Shown here: positions 7,946 through 41,423 of the stretch, one piece after another
Layout of the letters: each line of letters begins with the position of its first letter
How positions within the stretch are numbered: position 1 is the first letter of the stretch
Source: Candidatus Dormiibacterota bacterium
GTDB lineage: Bacteria > Chloroflexota > Dormibacteria > Dormibacterales > Dormibacteraceae
Reading direction: 5' to 3'
Length of the DNA stretch: 64,000 bases
Assembly: GCA_003151935.1 (NCBI GenBank)
Contig: PLYZ01000067.1
Coordinates: forward strand, 33,784-97,783
Translations under genes and position numbers: made by a program
The notes under the pieces: generated by a model
Seen by the model: only the letters and a program-made list of their open reading frames with translations
Databases searched by the model: none
Told to the model about the DNA's origin: nothing

Positions 7946-8770
7946 TCACCGATTCGCCACCAGCAGCTCCAGCGAGTCGACGAGCCTCGGGCCGGGCCGG
8001 TTGAAATAGGCGGATCCATCGAGGACGACAACGCGCTGTGCGCCCACCGCTTCGATCCGCTCGCGCACTCCGTCGGCTTCCGTCTTTGCCCGGGCGAGGT
8101 CGAAGCCGCACGGCGCCAGGATCAGCAGCTCCGGCCGCGCAGCCATCACCTCGCTCCAGTCCATCGCCACCGACGGGACGCCGGGCCGCGCCAGGCGATC
8201 GTCGATGCCGGCCAGGGCCAGCAGATCCGGCGTCCAGTGCCCGGCTCGATAAGGTGGATCGAGCCACTCGAGAAAAACGCCGCGGACTCTCGGAAGCAGG
8301 CGCACCTTCTGAGAAGCGGCCTCGATGCGCCGGCGCAACCCCTTCATCAACTCCGTGGGGTCGGCGCGACATGCCTGGGCCAGCTCTTCGATGTCGGTGA
8401 GAACGTCCTCGAAGGAATGAGGATGCTGCCGGATCATGCGAATTCCAGCGAGGTCCTGCGCGACCTGGTCGGCCGGAATCGCGCAAACGTCGCAGATGTC
8501 CTGCGCGACCACGAGGTCGGGCTCGAGTGCGAGGATGGCGTCGGTGTCGACGGAGTAAAGCGATCGGCCCTCCATCGCGGCCAGTGACACCTCCGCGTCG
8601 ATCGCACCGCTCGGCTTGTCGAAGAGCCGGAGCGTCGACCGCGTGACGATCGGGCGCGAGGCCGCCTCAGGTGGGTAGTCGCATTCGTGGGTGACGGCGA
8701 CGACCTGGTCCCCAAGCCCGAGCGCGAAAAGTGTTTCTGTCGCGCTCGGCAGAAGCGACACGATCCTCAT
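7946..8770 (-). CDS. BtuF/FhuD-type (Peripla_BP_2) binding protein without a signal peptide
   Basis: MRIVSLLPSATETLFALGLGDQVVAVTHECDYP...EPDLVVAQ...ELLILAPCG is the class III SBP fold. It starts directly with the first beta-strand, so there is no export signal. The ATG overlaps the upstream stop (ATGA). Confidence 0.75.
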   Translation of the reverse strand: MRIVSLLPSATETLFALGLGDQVVAVTHECDYPPEAASRPIVTRSTLRLFDKPSGAIDAEVSLAAMEGRSLYSVDTDAILALEPDLVVAQDICDVCAIPADQVAQDLAGIRMIRQHPHSFEDVLTDIEELAQACRADPTELMKGLRRRIEAASQKVRLLPRVRGVFLEWLDPPYRAGHWTPDLLALAGIDDRLARPGVPSVAMDWSEVMAARPELLILAPCGFDLARAKTEADGVRERIEAVGAQRVVVLDGSAYFNRPGPRLVDSLELLVANR

Positions 8771-9399
8771 CCGGCGCCGCCCTCTTGCCGCAATCGTTCG
8801 AGGACCTGCTGGAAGGCTTCGTACGGCTGGGCGCCGAGCACCAGGTAGCGCTGCCCAAAAATGTGCGCCGGGATGGCGTTGATTCCGACCGACTCGGCCT
8901 CGGCGCGATTCTTGTCGATCACGAGCGCGTAGCGATCCTCATCGATCGCCTTCCTCAGTTCGGTCGCATCCAGGCCGACTCCAACCCCGATCCGCACGAG
9001 GTCGTCCGTGTCCTCGAGCCGTCCGCTCCCCTCCCAGTGCGCCTTGAACAGCGCTTGGTGCATCGCCTCGAACTTTCCGTGCTCGCGCGCGAACTCCGCG
9101 GCGCCCAGCGCGCGGCGAGAGTTGATGATCACGTCGCGCTGCTGCATGGTGAGGCCGACCTCTGCAGCGATCTCCTCCAGGTGTTTTCGTATCTGTTCAA
9201 AGCGCGCGCCACCGAAATATGCTTCGCGCGGAATTCCCTCGAGAGGAGCCTCGGGGTGAAGCTCGTAGGGCAGCCAGGTCACGTGCACGAGGTTCTCCCG
9301 CTCGAGCTGCTCGACTCGGACCGAGTCGATGTAGCACCAGGGTCAAACGTAGTCGGAGAAAACGATCAGCTCGGCCGGCGCGGGTGGATTCATAGCCAT
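8767..9399 (-). CDS. DsbA/FrnE-like thiol-disulfide oxidoreductase with in-frame TGA (9345-9343) at the first Cys of the CPWC motif; candidate selenoprotein (U-P-W-C)
   Basis: The track ORF 8767..9288 lacks the redox helix. The same frame upstream reads MAMNPPAPAELIVFSDYV-TGA-PWCYIDSVRVEQLERENLVHVTWLPYE.... A hairpin lies 13 nt downstream of the TGA. Confidence 0.7.
9311..9329 (-). promoter_or_regulatory. SECIS-like hairpin downstream of the DsbA-like UGA
   Basis: The minus-strand RNA UCGACUCGG-U-CCGAGUCGA is a perfect palindrome. The stem starts at +14 from the UGA and the apical loop contains G and U. Confidence 0.55.
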
Positions 9400-30410: not shown

Positions 30411-31145
30411 GTGGCGATTCTGATCGATCGCGAGGAAGTCCAGGCCCTGGTCAAGCAGGGCGCACAGCTGGTCGAGGTGCTTCCCGCGAAGGAATACGCC
30501 GAGGATCACCTTCCAGGAGCTGTGAGCCATCCGCTCCGGCAGCTGGACAAAGAGGCCAACCAGATCGATCGCAACCGGCCCGTGATCGTCTACTGCTGGG
30601 ATGCCGCTTGAGACATGGCGCCCAGGGCCGCGGCGCGGCTCGAGAGTCTCGGATTCGACAGAGTCCATGAGTACAGGGCGGGCAAGCTCGACTGGCTGGC
30701 CGCCGGGCTGCCGGCCGAGGGCGAAAACTCGAACTGCCCACGCGCGGGCGAAGCGTCCCGCAAAGACGTGGTCGTCTGCGGCTTGAAGGACCGCTTGGGC
30801 GACGTCCGCGAGCGCGCGAGACAGGCGGGCTGGGACGTCGCAGTGGTCGTCGACGAAGAGCACATCGTGCTCGGGCTGATGAGGTCGAAGCAGCTGGAGA
30901 TGGATCCCAACCTGGCGATCGAGCTGGCCATGCGCCCGGGTTCCAGCACGTTTCGTCCTTACGTGTCGACCAAAGAGATGGCCGACTTCATGGTTGAGCA
31001 CGACCTCGACAGTGCTCCGATCACGACCTCGGACGGAAAACTCGTCGGCGTGCTGCTGAAGTCGGACACCGTACGCCTGGCGGCGGACGCCACCGCCTGC
31101 ACCCGCAAGCTGATAATCACGGCCGACCCGGCAGCCGACGCTTAG
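30411..31145 (+). CDS. Rhodanese-CBS-pair fusion protein with in-frame TGA (30609-30611) in the active-site loop; candidate selenoprotein (C-W-D-A-A-U)
   Basis: Track ORFs 30411..30611 and 30615..31145 share a frame and are separated only by TGA-GAC. Joined, they read ...RPVIVYCWDAA-U-DMAPRAAARLESLGFDRVHEYRAGKLDW..., one uninterrupted rhodanese domain followed by two CBS motifs. Confidence 0.65.
30625..30641 (+). promoter_or_regulatory. Hairpin 13 nt downstream of the rhodanese UGA (possible SECIS)
   Basis: GGGCCGC-GGC-GCGGCUC forms a 7-bp stem including one G-U pair. The small G-rich loop has no U, so it is less canonical than the other two hairpins. Confidence 0.35.
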
Positions 31146-38281: not shown

Positions 38282-39475
38282 ATGAAGCTGCGGATCGGGA
38301 TCGTCCTGCTGCTGGTCGTCCTCGGCCTGGGGACCTGGAACTATCTCCGCCCGATTCCCGGAGTGGCGGCCACCGGCTCGCCTCCCGCCAGCGAGGTGAT
38401 CGCCGGCACGCCGCCCGCGATGCCCTGGCCGAGCCGTGGTTCGGCCGCCGTCGGCGTCCAGAACCTCGGGTTCATAGCGAGCTCGGGCAACGAGCAGGCC
38501 ATTCCGGCCGCCAGCGTCACCAAGGTCATGACCGCGTTGGTGATCCTCGAGGACAAGCCGCTGAAGACAGACGACCCCGGGCCCACGATCACTCTCACCG
38601 ACGTTGACGTCCAGGCGTACGTCGCGGACCTCGCAAACAAGGAGTCTGTGGCCGCGGTGCAGGCCGGCGAGCAGATCACGGAGCTCCAGGCCCTCCAGGG
38701 CATGTTGATCCCGTCCGCGAACAACCTCGCAGAGACGCTTGCCCGCTGGGATGCCGGTTCGATCGATTCATTCGTCGCCAAGATGAACGCCCGCGCCGTG
38801 GCCTTGCACCTTACCCACACCAGGTTTGCGGACACGAGCGGAGCCAATCCAGGCAGCGTCAGCACGCCGACCGATCTCATATCGCTCGGCATGGCGGCGA
38901 TGCAGCAAGAGGTGTTCGCCCAGGTGGTCGGGATGGGCTCGGCCGTGATTCCAGTAGCGGGCACCGTCTACAACGTCGACGGCGTCCTCGGGCAGAGCGG
39001 GATCATCGGTATCAAGACCGGCTCCGGCCTGAATGCCGGAGCGAACTTTCTGTTTGCCGCGACCATATCCGTGGACGGAGTGCCGATCACGTTCTATGGA
39101 TGCGTGATGGGCCTGTCGACATTGGCCGACACGTTCGCGGCGGCCAAGACCTTGATCGGAGCGATGCAGGCGGCCCTGCACGTACGCCATGTCATCGCCC
39201 GCAATCAGACCATCGCCACCTACATCACTCCTTGGGGCGCGCAATCAGACCTGGTCTCGTCGGTCGACGTCAATCTGGTCGAGTGGCCCGGCATGGTGCT
39301 GAGGCAGCGTCTCGACACGCGGACGATCGTTGTCGACCAGCCGCTCGCGGCGGGCACGCAGGAGGGCACCGAGCACATGGTTCTGGGTGACTACAGCCTC
39401 GACATCCCGCTGGTCACGGCCGACCCGATGTATCCACCCGGCCGCTTCTGGCGGCTGACTCGCCTGAGCTTCTGA
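38282..39475 (+). CDS. D-alanyl-D-alanine carboxypeptidase (S11 penicillin-binding protein)
   Basis: SxxK (SVTK), SxN (SANN) and KTG (KTGSG) motifs, with an N-terminal hydrophobic signal/anchor. Confidence 0.85.
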   Translation: MKLRIGIVLLLVVLGLGTWNYLRPIPGVAATGSPPASEVIAGTPPAMPWPSRGSAAVGVQNLGFIASSGNEQAIPAASVTKVMTALVILEDKPLKTDDPGPTITLTDVDVQAYVADLANKESVAAVQAGEQITELQALQGMLIPSANNLAETLARWDAGSIDSFVAKMNARAVALHLTHTRFADTSGANPGSVSTPTDLISLGMAAMQQEVFAQVVGMGSAVIPVAGTVYNVDGVLGQSGIIGIKTGSGLNAGANFLFAATISVDGVPITFYGCVMGLSTLADTFAAAKTLIGAMQAALHVRHVIARNQTIATYITPWGAQSDLVSSVDVNLVEWPGMVLRQRLDTRTIVVDQPLAAGTQEGTEHMVLGDYSLDIPLVTADPMYPPGRFWRLTRLSF

Positions 39476-39524
39476 TCGCAGGTCGAGTCAGAATTGGCGA
39501 GCGATCTCCGAGGAGGTAACCGGT

Positions 39525-39938
39525 ATGCCAAAAGTAAAAGGGACGGGCACCAAGCAGTCACCGTGGCAGCTGACGACGCCGAGCGGATCGTCTGAATACC
39601 TGATGTACAGGGACGAATCGCTCGACCCGCCGGCGATCGTCTGCATGGTCGGCAAGACCGAGCTTCGATACGACGTCCGCGCGATCGAGGACCTCCACGC
39701 GATGCTCAAGAAGCAAGGCGACTGGGTGCCGCTCGGAAGCGCCGACGAGCAGAAGCCCGCGGCGGAGGGAACCGTCGAGGCATGGGGCAGGTCGCCGAAG
39801 AACCCGGTTGGCGGATGGTATGGGCTCAAGAAGGGACTGCGCGGCCGGTTCGGCATGTACATGCCGCCGCTGCTGGAGGCGCTGGACCTCGCCGAGGTCG
39901 AGCACAATCCAAAGAACAATCGCATGCGCGCGAAGTGA
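39525..39938 (+). CDS. Conserved hypothetical protein (DUF6855-like)
   Basis: 137-aa ORF with a strong SD (GAGGAGG). The sequence ...PWQLTTPSGSSEYLMYRDE...AIEDLHAMLKKQGDWVPLGSADE...GWYGLKKGLRGRFGMYMPPLLE... recalls a family I know only as uncharacterised. Confidence 0.6.
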   Translation: MPKVKGTGTKQSPWQLTTPSGSSEYLMYRDESLDPPAIVCMVGKTELRYDVRAIEDLHAMLKKQGDWVPLGSADEQKPAAEGTVEAWGRSPKNPVGGWYGLKKGLRGRFGMYMPPLLEALDLAEVEHNPKNNRMRAK

Positions 39939-40210
39939 TCAACCCGCTGCACGAAGCGCAGATCGAATACTGCGTCCCTTGAGACTATCTAGACCAGGCC
40001 GTGGGCCTGGCCAACGAGCTCCTGAGCCGCTGGGCCCCCGTAATGCGCGCGGTCGAGCTCTCGAGCGGCAGCAGCGGCCGATTCGAGGTCACCCTCGACG
40101 GCGAGCTCCTCTTCAGCAAGAAGGCGACCGGGCGGTTCCCGAAGCCGGGTGAAGTTGCCGGGCTCTTTGAGAAAAAGCTCGGCCCGGCCCTGGAGTGGAG
40201 ACAGCATTAG
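39935..40210 (+). CDS. SelW/Rdx-family protein with in-frame TGA (39980-39982) in the CxxU motif; candidate selenoprotein
   Basis: The track ORF 40001..40210 lacks the redox motif. The same frame upstream reads V-INPLHEAQIEYCVP-TGA-DYLDQAVGLANELL.... IEYC-x-x-U is the Rdx signature. GTG 39935 overlaps the upstream stop (GTGA). Confidence 0.75.
39994..40010 (+). promoter_or_regulatory. SECIS-like hairpin downstream of the SelW-like UGA
   Basis: CCAGGCC-GUG-GGCCUGG is a 7-bp perfect stem starting 11 nt after the UGA, with G and U in the apical loop. Confidence 0.6.
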
Positions 40211-40264
40211 GCTGCCGCTTCTGTAACAGTCCGCTCAGTTTCGACACCAGGCATCGATGACCGA

Positions 40265-40487
40265 TTGCGCAACCCTTGTCAGCTAGATCGCGCTCTTATC
40301 CTGGGCCACCGGCGGAGGATCGACCGGGAGATGGTGCGCGAAGCGGCCTGGCCCAAGGAGCAAGCACCGGCGATGTTCATCTGTGGGCCGACCGCATTCG
40401 CCGAGACTGCGGCCGATTTGCTAGTTGAAGCGGACTACGAGCCCGGCCTGGATCAAGACCGAGCGATTTGGCGCCACCGGAGGATGA
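40265..40487 (+). pseudogene. C-terminal remnant of an FNR-like FAD/NAD-binding oxidoreductase (N-terminal ~2/3 missing, 1-nt frameshift near the end)
   Basis: ...GHRRRIDREMVREAAWPKEQAPAMFICGPTAFAETAADLLVEADYEPG in one frame, then the canonical ending WIKTERFGATGG* in another frame (stop 40485-40487). Confidence 0.6.
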
Positions 40488-40671
40488 CGATGGAGATATC
40501 TGAGGCGACGTCAACCCGGTGGGACGGGTCCACGTTTACATCCAGGCGCCGGGCGTCGTCGTCCGCTGCCCCGACTGTGAGCAGGTCCTTATGCGCGTGG
40601 TGCAAGGGCGCGGTCGGTCCTGGGTCGACCTGCGCGGGATGCGCTGCCTGGAGTTCGCCGCTTCCCAGTAG
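40468..40671 (+). other. DUF6510-like zinc-ribbon ORF interrupted by in-frame TGA (40501-40503): pseudogene or fourth Sec candidate
   Basis: The frame reads ...EDDDGDI-TGA-GDVNPVGRVHVYIQAPGVVVRCPDCEQVLMRVVQGRGRSWVDLRGMRCLEF.... The TGA aligns with the second Cys of the family CxxCG motif as I remember it. The N-terminal part of the family is missing. Confidence 0.3.
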
Positions 40672-40802
40672 CGTGGCTACCCGAAGTAGCCTGGAAAAGT
40701 AATCAGGCGACCCGGATCCACCTTCCGACCGTTGTCCTAGTGCGCGTTCTGTAAGGAATCGGTAACTAAGTTTCGGTAAGCCTCTCGGGAAGGAGGGTCC
40801 CA

Positions 40803-41423
40803 GTGGTCGCACATCCGGTGCCTCGGATCAGGGGATGGTTGGATGCCGTGGTCGTCCTCGGCCACCTGGTCAAGGACCGGCAGGCGCTCGGCCACAATCG
40901 GCGCGTAGCGCACCTCTGCGTCCAGGTTGGACGCCAGATGGCGATGACGACGGCCGAGCTGCGAGTGCTCGCCCGAGCGGGTCTTCTGCACGACATCGGC
41001 AAGCTTGCGATCCCCGACCATATCCTCGAGAAGCATTCGCCACTGGACGAATCCGAGTGGCGGCTGATGAAGTCGCACCCCGAGATCGGCCTGTCACTCC
41101 TTGGCGACGGCCGGTCGCGGAGAGAGCTGATAGCGGTCCTCTACCACCACGAGCGGCTCGACGGCAGCGGCTACCCGTACGGGCTGGGCGGCGAAGCGAT
41201 CCCCATCGAGGCGCGGATCGTCGCGGCCGCAGACACCTACGACGCTTTGACATCGGACCGGCCCTACCGGACGGCCCGAGCCCCGCAGGAAGCGCGGCTC
41301 GTGATGATGGAAGAGGCTGGCCGGCGGCTCGACGCCAGGGTGGTGTCGGCCTTGCTCGCGGCCGTCGACTCCTATCCGGTCAGGCCGGCAGGTACCGCCC
41401 GGAGGATGTCGCTGGCCGGCTGA
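40803..41423 (+). CDS. Stand-alone HD-GYP domain protein (putative cyclic-di-nucleotide phosphodiesterase)
   Basis: GLLHDIGKLAIP, HPEIG, YHHERLDGSGYPYGL and AADTYDALTSDRPYR motifs. GTG 40803 is preceded by GGAAGGAGGG. Confidence 0.85.
   Translation: MVAHPVPRIRGWLDAVVVLGHLVKDRQALGHNRRVAHLCVQVGRQMAMTTAELRVLARAGLLHDIGKLAIPDHILEKHSPLDESEWRLMKSHPEIGLSLLGDGRSRRELIAVLYHHERLDGSGYPYGLGGEAIPIEARIVAAADTYDALTSDRPYRTARAPQEARLVMMEEAGRRLDARVVSALLAAVDSYPVRPAGTARRMSLAG

Follow-up and report, generated by a model that had tools for sequence, protein, structure and literature searches.

A SelW-like gene with a conserved in-frame UGA, very probably a selenocysteine codon, in Candidatus Dormibacterota

Gene structure and family membership

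The window analysed here is a 64-kb stretch (64,000 nucleotides) of contig PLYZ01000067.1 from assembly GCA_003151935.1, assigned to a Candidatus Dormiibacterota bacterium. It carries a short SelW-like gene of the Rdx family whose reading frame contains a UGA codon, followed by a small hairpin inside the coding sequence (Table 1). Starting from GTG 39935-39937, the frame translates as V-INPLHEAQIEYCVP-TGA(39980-39982)-DYLDQAVGLANELL...EWRQH and closes at TAG 40208-40210; the part downstream of the TGA, in the same frame and up to the TAG, is DYLDQAVGLANELLSRWAPVMRAVELSSGSSGRFEVTLDGELLFSKKATGRFPKPGEVAGLFEKKLGPALEWRQH. Each of the coordinates given in the initial annotation (gene, UGA, hairpin, GTG start and overlap with the upstream stop) was verified on the sequence. 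Every gene caller reported a 69-aa open reading frame (ORF) downstream of the UGA, and the GTG at which this ORF starts (40001) is the loop of the hairpin.

Table 1. Positions of the SelW-like gene, its elements and other features in the window
Feature	Position	Strand	Details
Full SelW-like/Rdx-family gene	39935-40210	+	91 codons including selenocysteine, then TAG 40208-40210
Cys-Val-Pro-Sec redox motif	39971-39982	+	TGC GTC CCT TGA; aligned with CTQC (3DEX, 2FA8) and CVPC/CAPC (distant homologues)
Putative selenocysteine codon UGA	39980-39982	+	TGA in 80/80 homologous loci, both flanks conserved in frame
SECIS-type hairpin	39994-40010	+	Stem 39994-40000/40004-40010, loop GUG 40001-40003
69-aa ORF from gene callers	40001-40210	+	Artefact of stopping at the UGA
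DUF6855 gene, 137 aa	39525-39938	+	Pfam PF21619, 233 bits
GTGA start/stop overlap of the SelW-like gene with DUF6855	39935-39938	+	Read from the sequence; same ATGA/GTGA overlap in 8 related loci
DsbA-like selenoprotein candidate	8767-9397	-	UGA 9345-9343; hairpin 9329-9311
Rhodanese-CBS selenoprotein candidate	30411-31145	+	UGA 30609-30611; hairpin about 30625-30641

When the two parts were joined and selenocysteine (Sec, U) was written as C, the protein matched the Pfam family Rdx (PF10262) with 70.8 bits (cut-off 22.6) over residues 9-75, and the match ran through the UGA position. The 69-aa ORF by itself scored 46.3 bits. The joined protein also matched NCBIfam TIGR02174 (CXXU_selWTH) with 57.4 bits (cut-off 34.2); the cut-off of NF041051 (SelTWH_Campy), the Campylobacter equivalog, was not reached (76.2 bits vs 88). 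In a sequence search the solved Rdx structures 3DEX, 2FA8, 2OKA, 2OBK, 2OJL and 2P0G were matched at E = 3e-10 to 4e-6, and the human Rdx-family protein C17orf37 (2LJK) at E = 2e-6. Pfam, TIGR02174 and the solved structures agreed on the SelW/Rdx assignment made initially, and the 91-residue product, a member of the Rdx (SelW/SelT/SelH) family, is predicted from this sequence similarity to have a thioredoxin-like fold.

The C-V-P-U motif that had been proposed for the gene was also borne out. In the two alignments printed, those of 3DEX and 2FA8, C13-V-P-U16 lay opposite CTQC; the likeness to these proteins extended over nearly the whole length, with IEYC-x-x-C opposite IEYCVP(U). The Cys-form Rdx proteins 3DEX (SAV_2001), 2FA8 (Atu0228), 2OKA and 2OBK have CxxC, whereas the window protein has CxxU. 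With the mammalian selenoprotein W/Rdx family (SelW, SelT, SelH, Rdx12/C17orf37) it shares the Pfam family and the place of the CxxU motif.

Conservation of the UGA codon

Homologues were collected in one scan of species-representative genomes, which gave 80 loci, 25 of Dormibacterota type and 55 from other phyla; with the window included there were 26 Dormibacterota-type sequences and 81 sequences overall. The scan patterns were back-translated from a Cys-containing query, so the search was not biased towards TGA. The closest loci were labelled Candidatus Dormibacterota (63-89% identity) and the others Acidimicrobiia/Actinomycetota, Chloroflexota (Limnocylindria) and Acidobacteriota, at least four phyla in total.

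The aligned codon was TGA in 80/80 loci (81/81 with the window), and the protein was conserved on both sides of it, which upheld the earlier claim of an in-frame Sec codon. TGC at this codon in homologous loci had been named as the sign of an error; the outcome, TGA throughout, favours Sec. Ahead of the TGA, the residues I/V-E-F/Y-C-V-P/V were kept in frame, and at the position aligned with GTG 39935 most of the closest loci had M, V or L, as expected of a start codon. The codons themselves varied synonymously: Glu was GAG in 51 and GAA in 24 sequences, Val was GTC in 54, GTT in 19, GTG in 6 and GTA in 1, and Pro was CCC in 26, CCT in 25 and CCG in 6, while Cys was present in 81/81. Synonymous variation with the amino acids kept indicates that the stretch ahead of the UGA is translated in the SelW-like frame.

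These results bear on the possibility that UGA 39980 is a true stop. In that case only the 69-aa ORF from GTG 40001 would give a functional product, or nothing would, and the locus would be a truncated gene or a pseudogene. The ORF is what every gene caller reports, Sec machinery was not seen in the window and most of the gene is deleted in one close relative (see below), all of which would suit a true stop. However, 15 codons upstream of the UGA are conserved in frame over four phyla with synonymous variation, and a 69-aa product would be without the first strand and the CxxU motif, with a fall in the Rdx score from 70.8 to 46.3 bits. Nor would a pseudogene preserve TGA in 80/80 species together with a covarying hairpin. 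We consider a true stop highly improbable.

The best 120 protein-database homologues were all 67-71 aa long and split at the same place, showing that the gene is hidden by ORF splitting, as the initial annotation had it. In an exhaustive search of representatives the relatives were again mostly short, and full-length ones (at most 53% identity) had CVPC, CAPC or CTQC; an alignment check of CxxC versus CxxU thus placed Cys at the Sec position in distant homologues and in the PDB proteins. Exact look-up of the 69-aa ORF and of the database homologue P0002 matched no contig. In some database homologues (P0139 and P0205) the Sec position is written as Trp (CVPW, CAAW). These entries most likely come from a gene caller that read UGA as Trp on a short contig; a real UGA-to-UGG change is the alternative.

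CxxC forms occur in the wider family, and the TGA could on that ground be a sequencing or assembly error for TGC in a gene whose true protein is CxxC. Against this, TGA was present in 80/80 independent genomes and in the 5/5 metagenome loci that carry the SelW-like gene (from the search made from the DUF6855 side, described below). In addition, an independent Joint Genome Institute (JGI) metagenome assembly (L164) contained an identical gene, TGA and hairpin included. TGA in the homologues and the identical gene in L164 exclude a sequencing error or a lineage-specific pseudogene, and we give the error a negligible probability.

The hairpin downstream of the UGA

The hairpin, CCAGGCC-GUG-GGCCUGG, has seven perfect base pairs and begins 11 nt past the UGA. 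Among the 1617 TGA trinucleotides of the window, 13 (0.8%) were followed by a perfect hairpin of at least 7 bp with an early loop G in the distance range of a selenocysteine insertion sequence (SECIS). The hairpin by itself is therefore only modestly unlikely, and comparative evidence carries the case. In the 26 Dormibacterota-type sequences the core 6-bp stem (39994-39999/40005-40010) was paired in 156/156 cells, and pairing was at most 51% when the stem partner was slid by 1-3 nt. The usual Dormibacterota form has a 6-bp stem with the loop CGUGA; in the window and two relatives an A-to-G change adds the seventh pair and the loop shrinks to GUG.

In the 55 sequences from other phyla the hairpin was CCGUC/CCACC/CCGCC - GGUCU - GACGG/GGUGG/GGCGG, from 16 nt past the UGA. 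Its stem showed compensatory GC-to-AU and CG-to-UA changes, with 42 double-change cells vs 11 in shuffles, a number that 0/500 shuffles reached. Residue pairs covaried with the stem (V..T, T..V, A..A). Synonymous sites were nearly frozen over the hairpin: heterogeneity in Dormibacterota was 0.047 at codons +4 to +9 vs 0.386 elsewhere, and in the other phyla 0.016 at codons +6 to +11 vs 0.431 elsewhere. The Ala codon +6 was GCC in 81/81 sequences. This frozen block moves with the stem, confirming that the Dormibacterota element lies about 4 nt nearer the UGA than that of the other phyla. Counted from the U of the UGA, the loop G-U is at nt 22-23 in the window and at nt 26-27 in the other phyla.

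In E. coli fdhF, read from NC_000913, the UGA is codon 140 and the GGUC loop lies at nt 22-25 counted from the U. The window element resembles the fdhF SECIS in being a hairpin in the coding sequence soon after the UGA and in the position of its apical-loop G-U (nt 23-24 in fdhF vs 22-23). Homologues from the other phyla share the loop sequence GGUCUG with fdhF, whereas the window loop is GUG (CGUGA in relatives) and not GGUC. The fdhF stem, moreover, has a bulged U. By the standard of fdhF, the 11-nt spacer and the G-U position agree, but the GGUC loop and the bulged U are missing. In eukaryotic SelW the SECIS lies in the 3' untranslated region and is bound by SBP2; by contrast, the element of the window gene is inside the coding sequence.

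The initial annotation had described a canonical-looking SECIS of the E. coli type. Of this description the spacing stood, together with a stem that is paired throughout the 26 Dormibacterota sequences and covaries elsewhere. The hairpin is real and conserved, and it is a Dormibacterota form with a stem shifted by about 4 nt and a CGUGA/GUG loop, not the form of the whole family. Comparison, not energy, supports the hairpin, which is predicted to work like a bacterial SECIS without being a copy of the fdhF type.

Probable selenocysteine decoding and the points against it

Several results weigh against Sec decoding at this locus. The local fold of 39975-40040 was no stabler than shuffles (z = 0.09), and thermodynamic stability was therefore dropped as an argument for the hairpin. 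Within the Dormibacterota stem (26 sequences) the three variable pairs changed to G-U only, and no two-sided compensatory change was found; the window stem is perfect, without the bulged U. No Rfam model matched, either in the whole window at gathering score or at E <= 10 on 39900-40100, so the check with SECIS models that had been proposed gave no support, with the caveat that a hairpin of this size offers a covariance model little information. With ARAGORN, neither the window nor the 80 genome loci nor 83 metagenome loci yielded a tRNA-Sec, and the 64-kb window contained no tRNA gene of any kind. In tblastn searches with E. coli SelA, SelB and SelD nothing was found in the window, the 25 Dormibacterota-type loci or the 83 metagenome loci. 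Finally, a metagenome contig (L084, Ga0208849_1000174) that is 98% identical on both sides is without window positions 40005-40671 (667 bp). At the junction, which falls within the SECIS loop, 5 nt (CGTGG) are shared, and the first 24 SelW-like codons are all that is left. Either a close relative has naturally lost the selenoprotein gene, or the contig is misassembled; a natural loss would mean that at least one close relative can do without the gene.

The sole tblastn match of SelA, SelB or SelD was a selB gene in an Acidobacteriota metagenome-assembled genome (MAG; locus L076, 8460-10520), with the Pfam domains SelB-wing_2, SelB-wing_3 and Beta-barrel_SelB. This gene and the SelW-like homologue share a strand, with selB 2.3 kb downstream and a YqeY-domain ORF in between. 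This neighbour and the genetic code of the window bear on another reading, in which the hairpin stimulates readthrough of the UGA by a near-cognate tRNA (Trp or Cys), or the code is reassigned, and no Sec is inserted. In its favour are the few database homologues with W at the Sec position and the lack of Sec machinery in the window. However, several Pfam-verified genes in the window, among them DUF6855, Peptidase_S11, arginase and the HD domain gene, end in TGA as an ordinary stop, which rules out a reassigned code. In homologues a redox Cys occupies the position, and Trp there would abolish the motif; the W entries are most simply translations by a gene caller set to code 4. With selB adjoining the homologue in L076, and with a hairpin position and G-U loop that fit the SelB-dependent type, readthrough without Sec appears very unlikely.

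We conclude that 39935-40210 is very probably one Rdx-family gene in which UGA 39980-39982 is read as Sec by means of a SelB-recruiting hairpin. What was observed directly is the structure of the gene, its place in the Rdx family, the conserved UGA and a hairpin that is both conserved and covarying. The steps of decoding are modelled on the E. coli paradigm and on the SelW-like family. A translating ribosome would not take the UGA as a stop; the hairpin in the mRNA would recruit the elongation factor SelB bearing Sec-tRNA(Sec), and SelB would hand Sec to the ribosome at the UGA, giving a 91-residue Rdx protein with a Cys13/Sec16 redox pair. The product presumably alternates between selenol/thiol and selenenylsulfide forms. 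By analogy, SelB-dependent Sec insertion and this redox chemistry may be expected in the organism.

Translation start and gene neighbourhood

The GTG at 39935 had been described as overlapping the stop of a DUF6855-like gene, and this proved correct: the DUF6855 stop TGA 39936-39938 overlaps GTG 39935-39937, and the upstream ORF matched DUF6855 itself. The two genes form one operon-like unit. A 4-nt ATGA/GTGA overlap was present in the window and in 8 of the 15 DUF6855-paired loci. In the other 7 paired loci, and in most Dormibacterota-type loci without DUF6855, a TATGAT, TATCAT or TAGCAT box stood 6-7 nt before the GTG; in the box-bearing loci (L006, L008, L010-L013, L015-L019, L021-L024) it takes up the region 6-13 nt ahead of the SelW-like GTG and ends 6-7 nt before it. 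The box looks like the -10 box of a leaderless transcript, with transcription beginning at the start codon. In the window, neither a Shine-Dalgarno sequence nor a -10-like box was found ahead of GTG 39935, and a promoter/terminator scan of 39300-40850 gave nothing on the + strand. DUF6855 has GGAGG 8 nt before its ATG. With its GTG overlapping the DUF6855 stop and no ribosome-binding site of its own, the SelW-like gene is plausibly translated by reinitiation after DUF6855. Translational coupling is thus plausible for the window and is not a property of the family.

DUF6855 was directly upstream on the same strand in 15/25 Dormibacterota-type loci and in 0/55 others. From the DUF6855 side, 73 metagenome loci extended far enough downstream, and only 5 of them had a SelW-like gene. 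The pairing thus amounts to local synteny in one lineage. A conserved DUF6855/SelW module, for which a check in related genomes had been proposed, was rejected on these counts. No neighbour of the SelW-like gene was conserved across phyla. The Dormibacterota gene order was Peptidase_S11 - (DUF6855) - SelW-like - HD domain - luciferase-like oxidoreductase.

DUF6855 shows very strong conservation: the best 80 of its 573 confirmed metagenome matches (loci L084-L163) have 75-99% identity. The gene is mostly found without a SelW-like neighbour. A PDB sequence search with DUF6855 gave only chance amylase matches (E about 0.2) and no solved relative; single-sequence structure prediction was poor (mean predicted local distance difference test score, pLDDT, of 53), and a literature search on DUF6855 found no paper.

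The SelW-like gene and the HD-domain gene are separated by a spacer (40211-40802) that exceeds those of related loci by about 430 bp, the HD gene starting 823 nt past the UGA vs a median of 398 nt. Within the spacer is an ORF (40265-40702) with ...MFICGPTAFAE... that resembles a flavin reductase C-terminus with an apparent frameshift. Pfam gave no match for this reductase-like remnant (40265-40500), so the likeness is only an impression.

Five contigs with the SelW-like gene (L009, L011, L012, L018 and L020) were labelled Verrucomicrobiia, Baltobacterales, Nitrosotalea (an archaeon), Eisenbacteria and Acidoferrum, and were 71-81% identical to the Dormibacterota gene. The DUF6855 neighbour was also present in L012 and L020. 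These contigs are probably mis-binned.

Other UGA-containing genes in the window

Two further genes in the window have a UGA at a redox position equivalent to Cys (Table 1). The DsbA-like gene reads ...LIVFSDYV-UGA-PWCY..., with U-x-x-C at the DsbA active site. The joined protein matched Pfam DSBA with 110 bits, through the UGA, and the hairpin UCGACUC-GGUCC-GAGUCGA has 7 bp and an fdhF-like GGUC loop. UXXC proteins of the DsbA-like type are an established selenoprotein family (PMC1088965).

The rhodanese-CBS gene reads ...PVIVYCWDAA-UGA-DMAPRAAARLE..., and its Pfam Rhodanese match (49 bits) runs across the UGA. Cys occupied the UGA position (YCWDxxCD) in 9/10 full-length homologues (56-64% identity). 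About 100 closer relatives were annotated merely as 148-176 aa 'CBS domain' proteins, and gene callers split the gene at the same point in the three related contigs read. Judged from the sequence, Sec would lie five residues past the catalytic Cys (CxxxxU) and would not replace it. The hairpin is GC-rich and could be due to chance. No report of the CWDAA-U motif was met in a limited look at the literature. As UGA-for-Cys genes, the DsbA-like and rhodanese-CBS candidates support Sec decoding in the organism.

Discussion

In the Sargasso Sea data no selenoprotein family was more abundant than the bacterial SelW-like CXXU proteins (PMC1088965). Few Cys homologues of these proteins occur in Sec-using organisms (PMC1794560). 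The window gene shares the Rdx domain and CxxU with the bacterial SelW-like selenoproteins described by Zhang and Gladyshev (PMC1088965, PMC1794560; TIGR02174). It also shares with them a UGA followed by a small hairpin with a loop G, a presumed redox role and the excess of Sec over Cys forms among close relatives. The motif context differs: in the orthologue group of the window P or V precedes Sec and D/N-Y follows it, whereas known SelW-like proteins commonly have C-x-x-C/U-x-W. Truncated homologues are labelled 'selenoprotein W-related' by JGI, and the NCBIfam model TIGR02174 is itself named for the CXXU motif. The window gene is a genuine, ordinary and mis-annotated member of the bacterial SelW-like family known since 2005. 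The register shift of the SECIS in Dormibacterota is a small point of interest, and the finding opens no new kind of biology.

Among the papers covered by the literature search, none linked Dormibacterota with selenocysteine or selenoproteins, and this does not prove that the finding is new. Already 57,630 bacterial selenoproteins, from 88 lineages, are catalogued in a 2026 database, which remarks on their imperfect annotation in MAGs (PMC13326102). The main value of the present result is in annotation, as gene callers routinely cut the SelW-like gene in two. With its relatives recorded as 67-71 aa fragments, the active site is missing from the protein catalogues of a widespread soil lineage. 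The gene is also a clean example of an RNA signal that constrains a coding sequence, with frozen synonymous sites, covarying amino acids and a phylum-specific hairpin register.

Dormibacterota are mostly aerobic and soil-dwelling. It is possible, if rather doubtful, that Candidatus Dormibacterota is an overlooked selenoprotein-rich lineage, with SelW-like (CxxU), DsbA-like (UxxC) and rhodanese-CBS (CWDAA-U) selenoproteins within 64 kb. If so, its SelB would need to recognise both the GGUCC loop of the DsbA-like gene and the CGUGA/GUG loop of the SelW-like gene, and the SECIS of the latter would be a rebuilt form lying about 4 nt nearer the UGA than in other phyla. Three UGA/Cys genes in 64 kb suggest that selenium use in Dormibacterota deserves a genome-wide count.

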